Below are positions 1,478 through 6,690 of a DNA stretch of 7,986 bases, in pieces (position 1 is the stretch's first letter; each line of letters opens with the position of its first letter). The stretch lies in the IMG/VR virus record IMGVR_UViG_2645727640_000024. One strand, given 5' to 3'. The translations under genes were made by a program, and so were the position numbers. This DNA is from a virus. Its lineage: Duplodnaviria > Heunggongvirae > Uroviricota > Caudoviricetes. The notes beneath the pieces were generated by a model that did not search any database, was not told the origin of the DNA, and worked only from the letters and a program-made list of their open reading frames with translations.

Positions 1478-1747
1478 TCAATTGTTGCTGTTTATTAATC
1501 GCCAACCACGAACATATGCTTCATAGGCATCTCTGTGCCTTACAGTTCCAGCCTGGCTAAACGGAATGTTAGCTAAAACTAAATCATTCTGAGCCATAGC
1601 GCGTCCTTCAAGCGCATCTTTTATGCCTAGCTCAAAAGCACAGGCAGCGCATTTGTGCCGACCTTCTTGTCCTTGATATTCAGGGAGAGACAGAAATGTT
1701 GGATTATAACGATGAGGGTTCTTGCAAATACCTGTTTTAGCCCGCAC
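1478..1747 (-). CDS. Hypothetical protein (89 aa with GTG start; alternative internal ATG start at 1597 giving 39 aa)
   Basis: ORF with GTG start preceded by GAGGT 7 nt upstream; ends 11 bp before a canonical - strand terminator. Composition is protein-like, but I recognise no family. Coding status is uncertain. Confidence 0.3.
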   Translation of the reverse strand: MRAKTGICKNPHRYNPTFLSLPEYQGQEGRHKCAACAFELGIKDALEGRAMAQNDLVLANIPFSQAGTVRHRDAYEAYVRGWRLINSNN

Positions 1748-1768
1748 TTTATTTACCTCATAGGAAAA

Positions 1769-1849
1769 ATATGCGTGCCTTTACAGAGGTGCGTGTAAGC
1801 AATAAAATATACGACGCACATTTTGATTTACTTCGGAAGGCACGCATAT
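1769..1849. repeat. 13-bp perfect inverted repeat (ATATGCGTGCCTT at 1769-1781 / AAGGCACGCATAT at 1837-1849) separated by 55 bp; inner GTGCGT/ACGCAC inverted pair at 1789-1794 / 1814-1819
   Basis: Read directly. Both arms contain ATG-CGT-GCC, so each strand has an ATG-initiated short ORF beginning MRAF. Confidence 0.6.
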
Positions 1850-1876
1850 CAGGTTAAGTGAGTCCGACCGAGTTTT

Positions 1877-1910
1877 ACGCCCCAATAGTTGCTGCTATTG
1901 GGGCGTTTTG
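1877..1910 (+). terminator. Intrinsic-terminator-like hairpin on the + strand (12-bp stem ACGCCCCAATAG / CTATTGGGGCGT, loop TTGCTG, then TTTTG)
   Basis: Perfect 12-bp stem followed by T4 on the + strand; on the - strand the hairpin is followed by AAAACT, so it is orientation-specific. It lies 20 nt after the stop of the candidate 28-codon + ORF (1771..1857). Confidence 0.45.
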
Positions 1911-1955
1911 CATGGACAATGCCGCGCAATTATCTTGTCGCTCACAATGCGAACG

Positions 1956-1983
1956 ATCTTACAAAAAGGCACATTACTGTCAA
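1956..1983 (-). promoter_or_regulatory. Candidate sigma70-type promoter on the - strand: -35 TTGACA (1978-1983), 16-bp spacer, -10 TAAGAT (1956-1961)
   Basis: Perfect -35 hexamer with a 4/6 -10 at correct spacing. It would drive leftward transcription through the structured leader into the 1478..1747 ORF and the 1444-1469 terminator. Confidence 0.3.
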
Positions 1984-1998
1984 GATAATTGATCGTTT

Positions 1999-2043
1999 TA
2001 ATCGATAGATAATAGACAATCTATTTGTTTAACAGATCGATTA
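1999..2043. promoter_or_regulatory. Operator-like dyad symmetry: outer arms TAATCGAT (1999-2006) / ATCGATTA (2036-2043) and central palindrome AATAGA-CAA-TCTATT (2011-2025)
   Basis: Read directly. AT-rich, located immediately upstream (relative to the - strand) of the candidate promoter and about 70 bp downstream of the parR-like stop. Confidence 0.3.
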
Positions 2044-2111
2044 TTGAAGTAAGTGTGCCAAATGGAATGATACTGTCTCTATAAACGTGAGCATTTTTCG
2101 CGCAGATGCTT

Positions 2112-2423
2112 TTACTCAGGAAATAACGCCCGGATATTCCCAGCCATCTGGCTGGTTATCTTAGCCACTGGTGCAGACTGTGCTTCAAACTTTTTTGAGC
2201 TGATTTGTGTCACAGGTAACATCTCATCATCAGCCCATGCGGCCAGTCGGTAAGCCTCTGCCGGATTCGTCTTCAGAAGTGCCAGCCCGGCCAGAAAAGC
2301 CACGCGTTGGCCGCTTTTGCGGGCTTCTGGTGTAAGGCTGTCCAGCCAGGCGCATGCTTCTCCTTCGTTCTTGACGGCGGCGGGCTTCAGATAGAAACTT
2401 ATCCGTCTGGTTGGTGTCGTCAT
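2112..2423 (-). CDS. parR: ParR-like small partition adaptor / DNA-binding protein (103 aa)
   Basis: ATG at 2423 lies 4 nt after the parM-like TAA stop and 7 nt after an AAGGAG Shine-Dalgarno. The track ORF starts earlier at a TTG inside parM and is probably not the real start. N-terminal region resembles plasmid R1 ParR as I recall it (RRxIxFxLxP, LxAGLAL, C-terminal LFPE). Confidence 0.65.
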   Translation of the reverse strand: MTTPTRRISFYLKPAAVKNEGEACAWLDSLTPEARKSGQRVAFLAGLALLKTNPAEAYRLAAWADDEMLPVTQISSKKFEAQSAPVAKITSQMAGNIRALFPE

Positions 2424-2427
2424 TGGT

Positions 2428-3387
2428 TTACTCCTTGTCCATTGCGTACAGCCCATTAACCAGAGCAAACTGTGGCACCCCGTCCGCGATGAAAGTCGCA
2501 TTAACTCCGCAGGCTTCGCGGATAGCGGGTGCCACAATCTCCGCCCCGCCACCGACAACCATCACCCGCCCGTAACCCGAAAAAACCGCCAGCGCGCGGA
2601 TCACGCGTTGTTTCAGTGTTTCTTCCTTTTCACGAATAACCGCCATCAGGCTGGCGTAATGCGCGTCATTGTGGATGTGCTGGCGCAGCCAGGCTTCATT
2701 ATGGCGATGTTCGATAATGGTATTGGCGATGTGGTGACTGGTGCGCATACCGTTAGTGGCCATCACCGACAGTACGGCATCGGCCATAAGAGAAACGCCT
2801 ACGTGTGGATCGCAAAACACCTGGCTGATACCTGCCAGTTGCCCCTGAACCTTTGCCACATCCAGCGTGGTTCCGCCCAAATCCACAATCAGCAGGGATT
2901 CAAACGGACTCATGTCAGCCAGTGCTTTAAAGCCAGCCGGAATGGATTCAGGCATAACCCGTACGTTACGGATAGTGAATGCTTCGCCGTTCTGGTACTC
3001 CACCGGGCGCATGACGTTCGCTTTTTTGCGGTTGATGTTGGCCATGTCCGGCTGTGCGTTTGTGTCGAAATATTCGCTCAGTGGCAGGGTAACAACCACA
3101 TCCACTTCCTGTGGCGTGATGTCTGATTTGACCAGCGCGTGATGAATGGCAATGACATTCACATCGCTGTACTGGTATTGCGTGTCGGTCGTCTGGACAA
3201 AGCGATCGCTGACCGGATCAAAACCATAGCGCACGCCATCAAGCATGTAGTTAGCAGGCTGCGAGCCACCGAACGGCGCAGACCATTCCGACTTGAAGCT
3301 GTTCGGGCTGATGGCGTTGCGGCGTTCGCCGTTCTCAGTCCATGCCAGCTTGATGTTGGTGGAGCCGTCGTCGATGTAAATTTTCAT
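2428..3387 (-). CDS. parM: ParM/StbA-family actin-like ATPase (319 aa)
   Basis: Actin-fold motifs shared with R1 ParM (R100 StbA): N-terminal IDDGSTNIKL (phosphate 1), LLIVDLGGTTLD (phosphate 2), VVGGGAE (adenosine), plus QYSDVNV, VMPESIPAG, LVNGLY. AAGGA 9 nt upstream of the ATG. Confidence 0.88.
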   Translation of the reverse strand: MKIYIDDGSTNIKLAWTENGERRNAISPNSFKSEWSAPFGGSQPANYMLDGVRYGFDPVSDRFVQTTDTQYQYSDVNVIAIHHALVKSDITPQEVDVVVTLPLSEYFDTNAQPDMANINRKKANVMRPVEYQNGEAFTIRNVRVMPESIPAGFKALADMSPFESLLIVDLGGTTLDVAKVQGQLAGISQVFCDPHVGVSLMADAVLSVMATNGMRTSHHIANTIIEHRHNEAWLRQHIHNDAHYASLMAVIREKEETLKQRVIRALAVFSGYGRVMVVGGGAEIVAPAIREACGVNATFIADGVPQFALVNGLYAMDKE

Positions 3388-3418
3388 GTCGGTTTTCCTT
3401 ATGTTGATTAATTAATCG

Positions 3419-3530
3419 TTTACGGGATTCTGAAATCCCGTTTTTGCCTGTTTTGTGCGCGCTTCATATATCGCTGCGCGTTTTTTGCTCATTTACGGGA
3501 TTCGTGAGTCCCGTTTCTGTCTGTTTTTTG
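3419..3530. repeat. Two imperfect 39-bp direct repeats (3419-3457 and 3492-3530), each an 8-bp-stem hairpin (ACGGGATT ... AnTCCCGT) followed by a T-rich tract
   Basis: Copy A TTTACGGGATTCTGAAATCCCGTTTTTGCCTGTTTTGTG; copy B TTTACGGGATTCGTGAGTCCCGTTTCTGTCTGTTTTTTG. Stems are conserved while loops differ. Copy A lies between the A stop and the parM start; copy B lies inside the last codons of the A ORF. Confidence 0.6.
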
Positions 3531-6304
3531 TTTCCACTGGTCAGGCCACCCCGCAGCAGGTCTGCTTTGCGGCTGGCGCGTTCAGTGGTTTCACTGATTC
3601 TCTGTGCGTGCTCTGCGTCGCGGATGGCGCGCAGCATGTCAGAAAGCACGGTAACGGGTGTTTTCATGGTGTTCTGGTCCTGCTGAAGTGTGGATGCCAG
3701 GCGTGCGGCGGCTTCAGGGTCTGATGCCCCCAGCTGTGCCAGATAGCTGGCGACCGGGTTATGGCGGATCTCCGTGCTGCTTACGCCATGATTACGGCTC
3801 AGACGCTGCCAGAGCTGCGTGATTCGGCTGTCCGGGCGGGTATCCGGTTTGCGTACAATTTCAAATCCCTGCGGTGCAATGATGCTGCCGTCAACGTACA
3901 GACTGCCGCCCCGTAACAGGTGCTGCATCTGTTGTTCACCGATATGCAGGCCGAGAGATTCAGCAGACTCCCGCCATTCTTTAGCGAGTAACTCGTGGTT
4001 ATCAGGCAAAGGCCGCTGCTGTTTGCGGCTCTGTGTCCAGTTCTGCATTTCATCGCTGCTGTTTTTTGCCTGTTTGTCACGAAGCGAACGCATCAGCGCC
4101 CGGCGTTCGTGCCGTTTCAGTGAGCGCATCCATTCATTTACTTCAACGCCGTCAGGAAGCTGCGGCCACGGTGCTGGCCGTTCTTCCGGCTGTTCTGTCC
4201 CGTTGTTGCCTGTTTCCTGTACACGGGGACAGTTATTGCCACGAGTCCAAGGGGCGGCAGGGCCGCCCTGAAGGTCAAAACCATTTTCGCGGGCGCTGTC
4301 TTCCGCTTCCGGTTTACGTCTTACCAGCTTCCAGTTATCCGGATGCGTGCACACACGGGAGGATTCCCCGATGAATGGCGACCAGATCCCGTAAATCTGT
4401 ACACTCTGTTCGCCGTAATCGTTCAGCTCATCTGCGAGGTCGTAGGCTGTGCGAATCAGGTAGTCCTTGCGCGGAACAAGTACGCCACCCTGTTTTTCAA
4501 TGTAGGTGGCAAAACATCCGGCATCAGCGGCAGCGAGTACCGCATCCATTGCATCATCCTTCAGCCGTTGTGGGCCTTCCGGGTTGCGTGCCATCTGGCT
4601 GGCAAGGCGGCGGAGTTCACGCCATACCTGACGGGAGGGGATGCCAAAGAACTGGAACTGGCGGACCCGGTGAAGGCGTGCCCAGCCGATGGCGCGTTCC
4701 ACGCTCTCGGCCATTGATTTTCCGGTTTCGTGGTCAACGCGTGGCTTGCCCGTTTTCGGGTCGATGCCATCCACGGCGCGGCTGTCCAGGTTCTTTCCGA
4801 TGTAGGTGGCGATGTAGCTGGTTGGCGTGCCTTTTGAGCCGTCGACATACTCCACCTTAAAGCGCGGAGTAATATCATTGCCCAGCTCGTGGCGGTCTTC
4901 CTGAATGGCAATATCGCGGGTGTGGGACACAATGGTGTCGATTTCTTCCGGATGAGCAAAGACCATCATATGCCAGTGCACGGTGCCGTCATGGTGAGGC
5001 TCCACCGTGCGGATGCCATACCAGCGCAGGCCGTCGCGGTTCAGTTTCTTGCGGACCGCCGCAAAAAACGTGTTAACCAGGTAATCGCTGGAGTCGCGCA
5101 TGGTGGCCCCGTTCCATTTGGGATTCGGATGACCGTTCTCTGTTGTGGCGTGGTATTTTGACGGGCAGGTGACAGTCAGAAACACCGCTCTGTCGCCACG
5201 GGCTTCGGCCAGAAGTTCCAGCCCCTTCATGGTGGCCATCATTTCTGCCTTACGGTGAATCGGGTTACTTACTCCCGCGTAATACACTGTCTCGAGATCA
5301 ATCGTGAACCCGTCTTCGTTTTCCAGCATGAAACTTTTCAGGAAATCGCGTGTTTTCTCGCGCTGTGCGCGAAACTCGCTTAACGCGTCCTGGCTCAGAT
5401 AGGGTGATGTTTTTCTGGAAACCAGACAGGCGGCGCGGAGTTGTTCTTCTCTCCACTCGCAACGTAACAGCCACAGTTTGCGTTTCCACCATTCCGCACA
5501 GGTCAGGCGAAGGATTGCGCCCGGCAGCAGCTCCGTGTCCGGTTCATTCCTCCGGTCTTTGTCTGTTGTCAGAGCGTCATAATGTGGAGGCATAGCGTGC
5601 AGGTGTAACGCCATGCGGGCCAGCATCTGATACGCCTTCAGCGTTACATCCATGGTCAGCTCGCCATCGGTCGCGCCAAAGCCATCGCAGAGTTTTTCAA
5701 AAGTGCCACTGAACATCGCCGCCGTCATGGTGGCCAGCGTCTGTATCTGGTGTTTGTTGAGCTGCGGCAGGTAAAGCAAATCGTCCAGGCGTTCGCGTCC
5801 GGCAAGGGAGCGATAGCCCGGTGTCAGCCAGCGGCTGTCGGTGCGGTCCAGACGTTCGAATATTTTGCGCAGGGTTCCGCGCGCGTAGCGTTCAGCCTGC
5901 CAGCTCTTTTTGCCTTTCTGACGATCGGCTTCCTGCTTCTTGCGCAGAAAAGAGAGGTGGCGGCTCAGAGGTTCACGCAGATAAACGGGAAGCACCTTCA
6001 GTGTGGCAAAAGCACGGGCCACCGGGTCTTGTTCTGTTGCCTGACGCTTGCTGATGATGCTTTGTGCCAGCTTTTCACGCTGTCCGGCTTCCTCAAGGGA
6101 TGCCATGAGTTTTTTACCCACGGTGGATTGTGCGAAAAAGGCTTCTTCCTTCGCTTCCTGTTCTTCCTGTGCCCTTTTGTTTGCCTCAAGGTAGTAACGG
6201 ATGGCGCGTTGCAGGTCGGTTTCAGTTTCCTGCCTGCGCTCCGTAAATCTGGCCGGATCAATGGCTGGCCGTGGTTCATTCCAGCTCCATGCAAACGCAC
6301 TCAT
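3464..6304 (-). CDS. A: Rolling-circle replication initiator endonuclease, P2 gpA-like (946 aa from the ATG at 6304; the track ORF begins at an upstream GTG at 6331)
   Basis: HUH-type motifs: HWHMMVF (metal-binding His pair), catalytic tyrosine pair YIATYIGKNLD, FLTVTCPSKYH. The ATG at 6304 overlaps the upstream gene stop (ATGA). The ORF is long and reads through repeat copy B at its 3' end. Confidence 0.9.
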   Translation of the reverse strand: MSAFAWSWNEPRPAIDPARFTERRQETETDLQRAIRYYLEANKRAQEEQEAKEEAFFAQSTVGKKLMASLEEAGQREKLAQSIISKRQATEQDPVARAFATLKVLPVYLREPLSRHLSFLRKKQEADRQKGKKSWQAERYARGTLRKIFERLDRTDSRWLTPGYRSLAGRERLDDLLYLPQLNKHQIQTLATMTAAMFSGTFEKLCDGFGATDGELTMDVTLKAYQMLARMALHLHAMPPHYDALTTDKDRRNEPDTELLPGAILRLTCAEWWKRKLWLLRCEWREEQLRAACLVSRKTSPYLSQDALSEFRAQREKTRDFLKSFMLENEDGFTIDLETVYYAGVSNPIHRKAEMMATMKGLELLAEARGDRAVFLTVTCPSKYHATTENGHPNPKWNGATMRDSSDYLVNTFFAAVRKKLNRDGLRWYGIRTVEPHHDGTVHWHMMVFAHPEEIDTIVSHTRDIAIQEDRHELGNDITPRFKVEYVDGSKGTPTSYIATYIGKNLDSRAVDGIDPKTGKPRVDHETGKSMAESVERAIGWARLHRVRQFQFFGIPSRQVWRELRRLASQMARNPEGPQRLKDDAMDAVLAAADAGCFATYIEKQGGVLVPRKDYLIRTAYDLADELNDYGEQSVQIYGIWSPFIGESSRVCTHPDNWKLVRRKPEAEDSARENGFDLQGGPAAPWTRGNNCPRVQETGNNGTEQPEERPAPWPQLPDGVEVNEWMRSLKRHERRALMRSLRDKQAKNSSDEMQNWTQSRKQQRPLPDNHELLAKEWRESAESLGLHIGEQQMQHLLRGGSLYVDGSIIAPQGFEIVRKPDTRPDSRITQLWQRLSRNHGVSSTEIRHNPVASYLAQLGASDPEAAARLASTLQQDQNTMKTPVTVLSDMLRAIRDAEHAQRISETTERASRKADLLRGGLTSGNKKQTETGLTNPVNEQKTRSDI

Positions 6305-6690
6305 GGCTGGTATCCCGTCACGCGCTGCCACTCCTGTGAGAAGAGGGCGGAAAGGCGGTTAAATTCAGCGGAGTATTCACTCAGCGAGGCACACCCGCCA
6401 GCAGTGCGATGCGCCAGCATTGCCGCAAATATGGAGGCCGGGGAGTCGTAATACGCCAGCAGTGATTCGCCGTGTGGTGTCAGGCAGTGCAACGCCAGCC
6501 CGTGTGGTGTGAAGTCCACGCGGTAGCAGTCGTCTACTGTGAAATAAAGGGTGTCTGCATTCTCCGGTTTTGTGGTGCGTGCTCTGTTGTCACGACCACG
6601 GATGTAGAGATCAAATAATCCCTGAAGAACGGGAGCCAGACGGGTGTCCTGTGTGCGCACCCATCTTGTGAAGTCATGAGCGTCAATCAT
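6301..6690 (-). CDS. Hypothetical early-operon protein (129 aa) immediately upstream of A
   Basis: ATG start; its stop overlaps the A start (ATGA). Position corresponds to the small ORFs preceding A in P2-type early operons. No family recognised. Confidence 0.6.
   Translation of the reverse strand: MIDAHDFTRWVRTQDTRLAPVLQGLFDLYIRGRDNRARTTKPENADTLYFTVDDCYRVDFTPHGLALHCLTPHGESLLAYYDSPASIFAAMLAHRTAGGCASLSEYSAEFNRLSALFSQEWQRVTGYQP

Follow-up and report, generated by a model that had tools for sequence, protein, structure and literature searches.

Two hairpin-forming repeats with T-rich tails flank the stop codon of the replication gene A, just upstream of the partition gene parM, in a P2-like prophage. 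Do these repeats stop transcription, fold in an mRNA or form a DNA site for a partition protein, and do they belong to the gene that they overlap or to the cassette that they precede? Here we examined them in a window of 7,986 nucleotides (IMG/VR record IMGVR_UViG_2645727640_000024; positions count from its first letter), which represents a P88-like (Xuanwuvirus, P2-like) prophage in reverse orientation. The original prediction for this DNA, made from the letters alone, held that the repeats look like tandem intrinsic terminators on the + strand and that they occupy the place where a parC-like centromere or operator for ParR would be expected. The features are as follows.

81–992, + strand: portal gene, C-terminal part
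1478–1747, − strand: open reading frame (ORF) of 89 amino acids (phrog_3941, function unknown, without a Pfam assignment)
2112–2423, − strand: parR, encoding a ribbon–helix–helix (RHH) adaptor of 103 amino acids (Pfam Plasmid_stab_B; profile match to 2JD3)
2428–3387, − strand: parM, encoding an actin-like segregation ATPase of 319 amino acids (Pfam; phrog_691)
3396–3400, − strand: AAGGA, Shine–Dalgarno sequence of parM, as read from the sequence
3404–3412, − strand: conserved box ATTAATCAA (sense), around 25 nt upstream of the parM ATG and kept in Escherichia coli, Hafnia and Plesiomonas
3407–3412, − strand: candidate −10 element ATTAAT, within the conserved box
3429–3434, − strand: candidate −35 element TTCAGA, a weak match that falls in the copy A loop and is separated by 16 bp from the downstream ATTAAT
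3416–3457, − strand: copy A, the proximal repeat, with a palindromic core at 3422–3441 (sense ACGGGATTTCAGAATCCCGT); candidate ParR block and operator
3458–3488, − strand: spacer of 31 bp, holding the stop codon of A and one in-phase T6 tract (3481–3486)
3464–3466, − strand: TGA stop codon of A, inside the spacer between the repeats
3489–3530, − strand: copy B, the distal repeat, with a palindromic core at 3495–3514; candidate distal ParR block
3464–6331, − strand: gene A, replication endonuclease (longest ORF taken; true start uncertain)
3467–3529, − strand: last 21 codons of gene A, shared with the cassette
2112–3530, − strand: putative parC–parM–parR block, its limits set by the homology breaks in contigs L062 and L087

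The interval 1478–3387 is filled by − strand genes, with variable cargo placed downstream of parR. No credible + strand gene was found upstream of the repeats within 2.4 kb, the nearest being the portal gene, which ends at 992. The assignment of parM rests on Pfam matches to StbA_N (9.7e-81) and to the ParM C-terminal domain (3e-68). ParR has an N-terminal strand, TRRISFYLKP, and a C-terminal tail, NIRALFPE; it is 26% identical to the StbB/ParR protein of plasmid R1, with which it has the N-terminal strand and the LFP of the C-terminal tail in common. A single-sequence search of the PDB with ParR gave no match, whereas a profile built from phage and plasmid ParRs matched the ParR structure of pB171 (2JD3, E = 9.5e-16). 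Among E. coli phages (loci L001–L122), ParR falls into allele classes that are around 100, 83 and 52% identical to that of the window, and ParM is at least 95% identical throughout. Most of the differences between classes fall in the linker that leads to the conserved C-terminal NI(R/Q)ALFPE tail and the DNA-reading strand is invariant, a pattern that suggests recombination or diversifying selection within parR.

Several signals were also noted in the cargo region. As a compact cargo gene, the 89-amino-acid ORF occupies part of the known P2 defence hotspot, with parR on one side and the cos/portal region on the other; a promoter-like TTGACA-16-TAAGAT precedes it (1983–1956, − strand) and a strong terminator follows it (1470–1450, − strand). 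On the + strand, a promoter-like TTTACA-17-TAAAAT (1780–1808) lies around 70 nt upstream of CCCCAATAG...CTATTGGGG plus CGTTTTG (1877–1906), a strong hairpin that gave weak, sub-threshold Rfam matches to antisense RNAs (ctRNA_pGA1 and sar). Positions 1780–1910 of this strand may encode a small RNA of roughly 95 nt.

A repeat search of the window resolved the repeats at the A–parM junction as one family of 42-nt direct repeats (3416–3457 and 3489–3530) with 81% identity and starts that are 73 bp apart; the 39-bp units previously proposed at 3419 and 3492 are real and are contained within them. Copy A can form the stem-loop ACGGGATT-CTGA-AATCCCGT (3422–3441; 8-bp stem and 4-nt loop) and copy B the stem-loop ACGGGATT-CGTG-AGTCCCGT (3495–3514), which includes one T–G wobble on the + strand. 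The stems are followed on the + strand by a T-rich tail, TTTTGCCTGT or TTCTGTCTGT, and in these respects the earlier description of 8-bp stems, differing loops, a wobble and T-rich tails was accurate. The pattern ACGGGATTNNNNANTCCCGT, which is expected 0.01 times per window in shuffled sequences, is present at both. On the sense strand, copy A is flanked by the A-tract CAAAAAC upstream and by GTAAACG downstream. The pair spans around 115 bp in all, 29–143 nt upstream of the parM ATG, and copy B lies inside the last 21 codons of gene A, where it encodes KQTETGLTNPVNE of the tail of the A protein. No more than two long units were recognized, with no clear sub-iterons inside them.

Single copies fold at around −10 kcal/mol on either strand (z-scores of −2.4 to −3.6). 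A consensus scan scored both copies as terminator-like on the + strand, and the shape of a Rho-independent terminator (a G+C-rich stem-loop plus a U-tract) is present on that strand only; folding and terminator prediction, as originally proposed, reproduced the tandem-terminator appearance, and, as the earlier description also held, no + strand gene feeds into it. A − strand terminator of A was considered and rejected, given that the stems lack a trailing U-tract on this strand. A scan of the whole window against Rfam (E ≤ 1) returned no match at 3400–3545. No matching repeat was found at the other end of the cassette, near 2112, and the count of palindromes with up to two mismatches in phage P88 and the window was not above chance. 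Elsewhere in the P88 genome there is one exact CGGGA-N8-TCCCG, in the tape-measure gene (30280), and otherwise no excess of cores. The 16-mer ACAGGCAAAAACGGGA precedes the core in both repeats, with a few additional weak matches in P88 or the window. A third near-copy of this 16-mer, with one mismatch, occurs inside gene A (4198–4213, − strand; 0.05 matches with up to three mismatches are expected per window); it is without a CCC partner and has three mismatches in P88.

Whether the repeats travel with parMR or with A was to be decided, according to the original prediction, by comparing the 3′ end of A and the adjoining junction across P2-like genomes, and this comparison places them with parMR. 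When IMG/VR was scanned with the hairpin pattern, 120 loci were obtained. Every one of these that also encodes ParM or A proved to be the same junction, and the 11 without either gene are unrelated in sequence. Among phage records, 14 match the 181-bp junction; each is a Xuanwuvirus (P88-like Peduoviridae) and is annotated with a replication protein next to ParM. The finding that would have assigned the repeats to A, their presence in a P2-like genome lacking parMR, was not encountered, as no P2-like phage record without parM matched the repeat region. The clearest separation comes from two contigs, L062 and L087, which share positions 2112/2116–3529/3531 with the window at around 94.5% identity and share nothing else on the A side. 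The A side of L062 has an A protein that is 30% identical to that of the window and an extra ORF of 159 amino acids, and L087 has a different ORF of 145 amino acids upstream. Because this block is common to both despite unrelated A-side genes, the repeats belong to parM–parR rather than to A and move with these genes as one unit. An origin for, or a binding site of, the A protein was rejected because the block persists with A proteins that are only 30–33% identical.

The homology in L062 and L087 runs from the stop codon of parR (2112) to approximately the outer end of copy B (3515–3531), although in L087, by eye, it fades already just past palindrome B. Given a break at this position, the last 21 codons of the P88-type A gene are cassette DNA. 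The earlier suggestion that the A frame had been extended into cargo-derived sequence is thus borne out with one reservation: the end of the frame does lie in the cassette, but parMR is an old resident of this phage group and not recent cargo, because the order A–parM–parR is kept among relatives in which ParM is only 53–62% identical.

Three rearranged junctions were observed. In L072 (4100–5140), a P88-like contig, both repeats and 16 codons of parM are kept, and a phd/doc-type toxin–antitoxin pair, on the opposite strand and reading toward the repeats, stands in place of the rest of parM and parR. In L179 (UViG_2657245439_000011, 3356–3475) there is a single hybrid repeat, in which the left part of copy A is joined to the right part of copy B; this looks like a 73-bp deletion through recombination between the copies, which also takes the normal stop codon of A, so that A would end at the TAA in the region of the ATTAAT box. 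In a degenerate prophage remnant of the E. coli EC7518 chromosome (L148, 2273159–2276201), parM–parR is joined directly to early-region genes (DUF4761, a repressor-like gene and an integrase), and the deletion endpoint coincides exactly with the start of palindrome A.

The distant homologues of ParM, at 53–62% identity, are found in Hafnia, Plesiomonas, Serratia and Enterobacter (62% for Hafnia and Plesiomonas). All of these loci lie in P2-like prophages with the order A–(ORF)–parM–parR–cargo–portal, and their A proteins are 48–56% identical in some cases and only 30–33% in others. Two GGG-N10-CCC cores precede parM in each of the E. coli, Hafnia and Plesiomonas loci, at nearly the same places: offsets from the parM ATG are −125/−52 in E. 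coli, −128/−55 in Hafnia and −131/−59 in Plesiomonas, which corresponds to core spacings of 73, 73 and 72 bp, respectively. The Hafnia and Plesiomonas cores read CGGG-N10-CCC. Self-complementarity of the ten inner bases is confined to the E. coli lineage (those of Plesiomonas are ACAACAAAAA and ACAACACTAA), and the upstream A-tract of the sense strand, which corresponds to the T tail of the + strand, is absent from Hafnia and Plesiomonas. The homologous sites of these two fold weakly, like shuffled sequences (z-scores of −0.1 to −0.7, with one at −1.9). The TRR[IV]SFYL strand of ParR is kept in all three lineages, and the cores are kept across genera, whichever of three A-side modules adjoins them, each time beside a ParR that has retained its DNA-reading strand. 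What is conserved is therefore a pair of spaced DNA motifs at fixed positions rather than an RNA stem or a terminator. The original proposal of a parC-like centromere or operator upstream of parM gains support both from these cores at matching positions and from the linkage to parMR.

Loci of the Serratia/Enterobacter type are organized differently. Their ParR reads NRKISFYL, and an inverted repeat of around 20 bp, GGGAACGAAATAGAAAAATG...CATTTTTCTATTTCGTTCCC, takes the place of the two direct repeats and shares the half-site CAAAAACGGGA with the window; the two-direct-repeat architecture is therefore not universal. In L140–L143 and L229–L231, which are of this type, the inverted repeat lies around 60–135 nt upstream of parM with a spacer of around 26 nt. 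A conserved GCCGTTTAAACGGC palindrome is found downstream of the inverted repeat in loci of this type, and two ATTTCATGACC repeats are present in L140. Phages with a shorter, divergent A have an extra ORF of 159–167 amino acids between A and parM (L137, 4453–4956; L062, 6460–6939). The ORF in L137 has no Pfam match on record, and the 3′ end of the extra ORF in Hafnia overlaps both putative ParR-site cores. A scan of genome contigs with ParM returned relatives only at ≥97% or ≤51% identity, and viral scans with the Hafnia and Plesiomonas ParMs gave nothing useful.

Variation among close relatives was assessed in 77 P88-like loci, which were ascertained through ParM and not through the hairpin, and which came from an alignment-based viral scan that returns only close relatives. 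The 8-bp stem of copy A is perfect in 43 of them. In 18 others, the changes in copy A are G–U wobbles on the − strand and mismatches on the + strand, where five contiguous pairs are left; the common variants are 3424 G>A and 3441 T>C. Copy B shows the opposite strand preference in 45 of the 77 loci, with G–U on the + strand and a C–A mismatch on the − strand. The tail of copy A is interrupted (TTTCGCC) in 10 loci. In an alignment of the 36 distinct sequences, none of the 16 pairs changes on both sides, and covariation does not exceed that of shuffled alignments, 484 of 500 of which reached the observed score. This pattern is plain sequence conservation with tolerated transitions, and is predicted by neither RNA reading. 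The earlier description of the changes as stem-preserving is not supported, as compensatory changes are absent among close relatives and the hairpins are lost in distant ones.

T-tracts start at 3419, 3441, 3451, 3481, 3492, 3514 and 3524, the last six lying 2.1, 3.05, 5.9, 6.95, 9.05 and 10.0 helical turns from the first, and the Fourier power at 10.5 bp is above that of all but 0.1% of shuffles (p ~ 0.001). The tails thus belong to an array of phased A-tracts that extends through the spacer as well. DNA with A-tracts in phase is usually intrinsically curved. Repeats spaced by 72–73 bp precede parM on two plasmids too, one an R1-like IncF plasmid and the other an IncL/M plasmid. The best σ70 candidates are TTCAGA-16-ATTAAT in the window and TTCATT-18-TATATT in Hafnia; both are weak matches, with the −35 element in the proximal core and the −10 element in the conserved box, and a stricter consensus scan called no promoter upstream of parM at the repeats. 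The proximal copy probably overlaps a weak parM promoter. Because no − strand terminator follows A, read-through into parMR from the early operon is also likely.

Taken together, we consider it probable that the repeats are a bipartite, parC-like ParR-binding site that doubles as the operator of a type II (ParMRC) cassette. In common with type II centromeres in general, they lie just upstream of parM–parR, consist of repeated units, are inherited together with these genes and are conserved in position along with the DNA-reading strand of ParR. In the mechanism that we propose, the cassette has been built into P88-like and other P2-like temperate phages, and the repeats would be its cis-acting site. 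Each repeat would present a core of around 20 bp (CGGG-N10-CCCG, palindromic in E. coli phages) among helix-phased A/T-tracts. The RHH protein ParR would bind both blocks co-operatively, seven helical turns apart, and the resulting nucleoprotein complex would capture the ends of ParM filaments. On the proximal block, ParR would cover the likely −35 element of the weak promoter and so repress parMR, which would also be transcribed through A from the early operon. Against this reading stand the absence of an R1-parC look, the presence of only two long units, the weakness of the promoter matches and the different arrangement in Serratia/Enterobacter-type relatives.

The terminator-like appearance is probably incidental. 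The repeats could nevertheless be tandem Rho-independent terminators on the + strand that act against antisense transcription from the cargo and shield A and the early operon, and most E. coli copies keep a good terminator shape that could serve a separate purpose; as a sole or second function, we regard such termination as unlikely. Its shape is canonical on the + strand (an 8-bp stem with four G–C pairs, a tetraloop and a T-rich tail), the phd/doc pair of L072 is a case in which + strand genes read straight into the repeats, and Serratia-type relatives have a hairpin and then GTTTTT on the antisense strand. In the window, however, the 2.4 kb upstream offers no + strand gene, and the promoter-like site at 1780–1808 is followed by a hairpin of its own. 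A guard against cargo transcripts would be expected downstream of parR, and not after 1.3 kb of antisense parRM. The shortening of the + strand stem of copy A to five contiguous pairs, the interrupted tails and the lack of compensatory changes also argue against termination, as do the positional homologues in Hafnia and Plesiomonas, which lack both a stable stem and a T-tract downstream of it.

In − strand RNA the palindromes fold just as well, and read-through RNA from A, which has no terminator on that strand, should include both of them, so that they might act as stem-loops of an A–parM transcript in processing, stability or the control of parM translation. The two common variants of copy A, as wobbles on the − strand, suit this reading, but the commonest variant of copy B is a mismatch on the same strand; the missing excess of covariation, the lack of an Rfam match and the loss of the stems in Hafnia and Plesiomonas, where the positions are kept, leave it the least probable of the explanations that we considered. 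It is also highly improbable that the repeats are sites of another DNA-binding factor (a phage regulator, or host IHF or Fis) or mere recombination boundaries of a mobile parMR module. The breakpoints of L062 and L087 do fall at or just past copy B, and L179 lost 73 bp by recombination between the copies. Yet the cores are kept with three A-side modules in several genera, always by a ParR with the same DNA-reading strand, no partner repeat marks the end near 2112 and, apart from the match at 30280, P88 has no excess of cores.

The junction is widespread. It was found in 1,304 of 5,426 complete E. coli genomes, or around a quarter, at 1,441 places on chromosomes and 2 on plasmids, and always between a replication endonuclease gene and parM. 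Homologous A–parM–parR loci occur in P2-like prophages of Salmonella, Citrobacter, Hafnia, Plesiomonas, Serratia and Enterobacter. P88 itself encodes an integrase and has the usual P2 gene order. A wider question is why, across several genera, integrating P2-like phages keep an actin-type segregation cassette beside the replication gene. Their partition genes have already been annotated and noticed; the cis site is so far undescribed, although one would be expected there, and our literature searches retrieved no centromere for a P2-like phage ParMR system. As a fragment of 115 bp, the site offers a direct handle on ParR binding, autoregulation, plasmid incompatibility and any role in phage replication or lysogeny. 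There is also a caution for annotators, in that a protein probably binds at the ‘terminators’ of this junction and over the last 21 codons of A.

The same locus was encountered in a survey of E. coli P2-like phages, around a quarter of which were reported to carry a ‘putative plasmid partitioning system’ in the gpA–gpQ hotspot (PMC9122126), a proportion that agrees with the genome counts given above. That study mentions the partition genes in passing, treats the system as content of the hotspot and describes no cis site. Our comparison differs from the hotspot view, as the block is conserved beside A across genera and the variable cargo lies downstream of parR.

Among plasmid systems, the parC site of R1 is the nearest in arrangement. 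It too lies directly upstream of parM–parR, consists of bipartite repeated DNA and is served by a homologous RHH ParR, and the function that we propose, a site that doubles as an operator for autoregulation, is a further likeness. The two iteron blocks of R1 parC flank the promoter on strongly curved DNA (PMC2241845), and the site described here has an A/C-rich sense strand with phased A-tracts. In R1, a 39-bp promoter separates two sets of five 11-bp direct iterons, and parC measures 159 bp. The phage site, by contrast, measures around 115 bp and has a 31-bp spacer between two 42-nt units, each with a 20-bp palindromic core; its distal unit falls within the last codons of the upstream gene, and the promoter, if there is one, seems to overlap the proximal unit instead of sitting between the units. 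An R1-type parC in the strict sense was rejected on comparison with L123 (980–1200), from which the site differs in unit length, number and sequence. The ParR of pB171 par2, another ParMRC system, resembles that of the phages in its RHH N terminus and flexible C-terminal tail. The pB171 centromeres are arrays of many short repeats, and a pB171-like plasmid locus (L127) showed no sequence similarity to the phage sites. Operators of Arc/Mnt-type RHH proteins are palindromes of around 20 bp that are bound by a dimer of RHH dimers. By analogy, such binding is a plausible model for each core, although these operators have no sequence relation to the cores and belong to pure repressors without a role in segregation.

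A phage counterpart is provided by AlpAC/alpS of the Corynebacterium prophage CGP3, which is implicated in phage DNA replication or transport and not in plasmid inheritance (PMC4446434, PMC5539076). As described there, it combines a prophage actin-like protein, a DNA-binding adaptor and cis sites upstream of the operon, but its protein families and host phylum are unrelated to those of the present system. By analogy with AlpAC (PMC4446434), the P2-like cassette might, as a speculative possibility, handle replicating or incoming circular phage DNA. It is similarly a tentative suggestion, to which we give a minor share of our confidence, that the cassette is a machine for handling phage DNA and not a device for maintaining a plasmid-prophage. 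The cassette would then be transcribed with A, ParR would assemble on the site where A ends, and filaments of ParM would separate or position the monomeric circles made by P2-type rolling-circle replication; alternatively, the filaments would handle the incoming circle ahead of its integration, with a rise in burst size or lysogenization. If this were true, the cassette would be an actin-based system for positioning genomes in a very common family of integrating enterobacterial phages.
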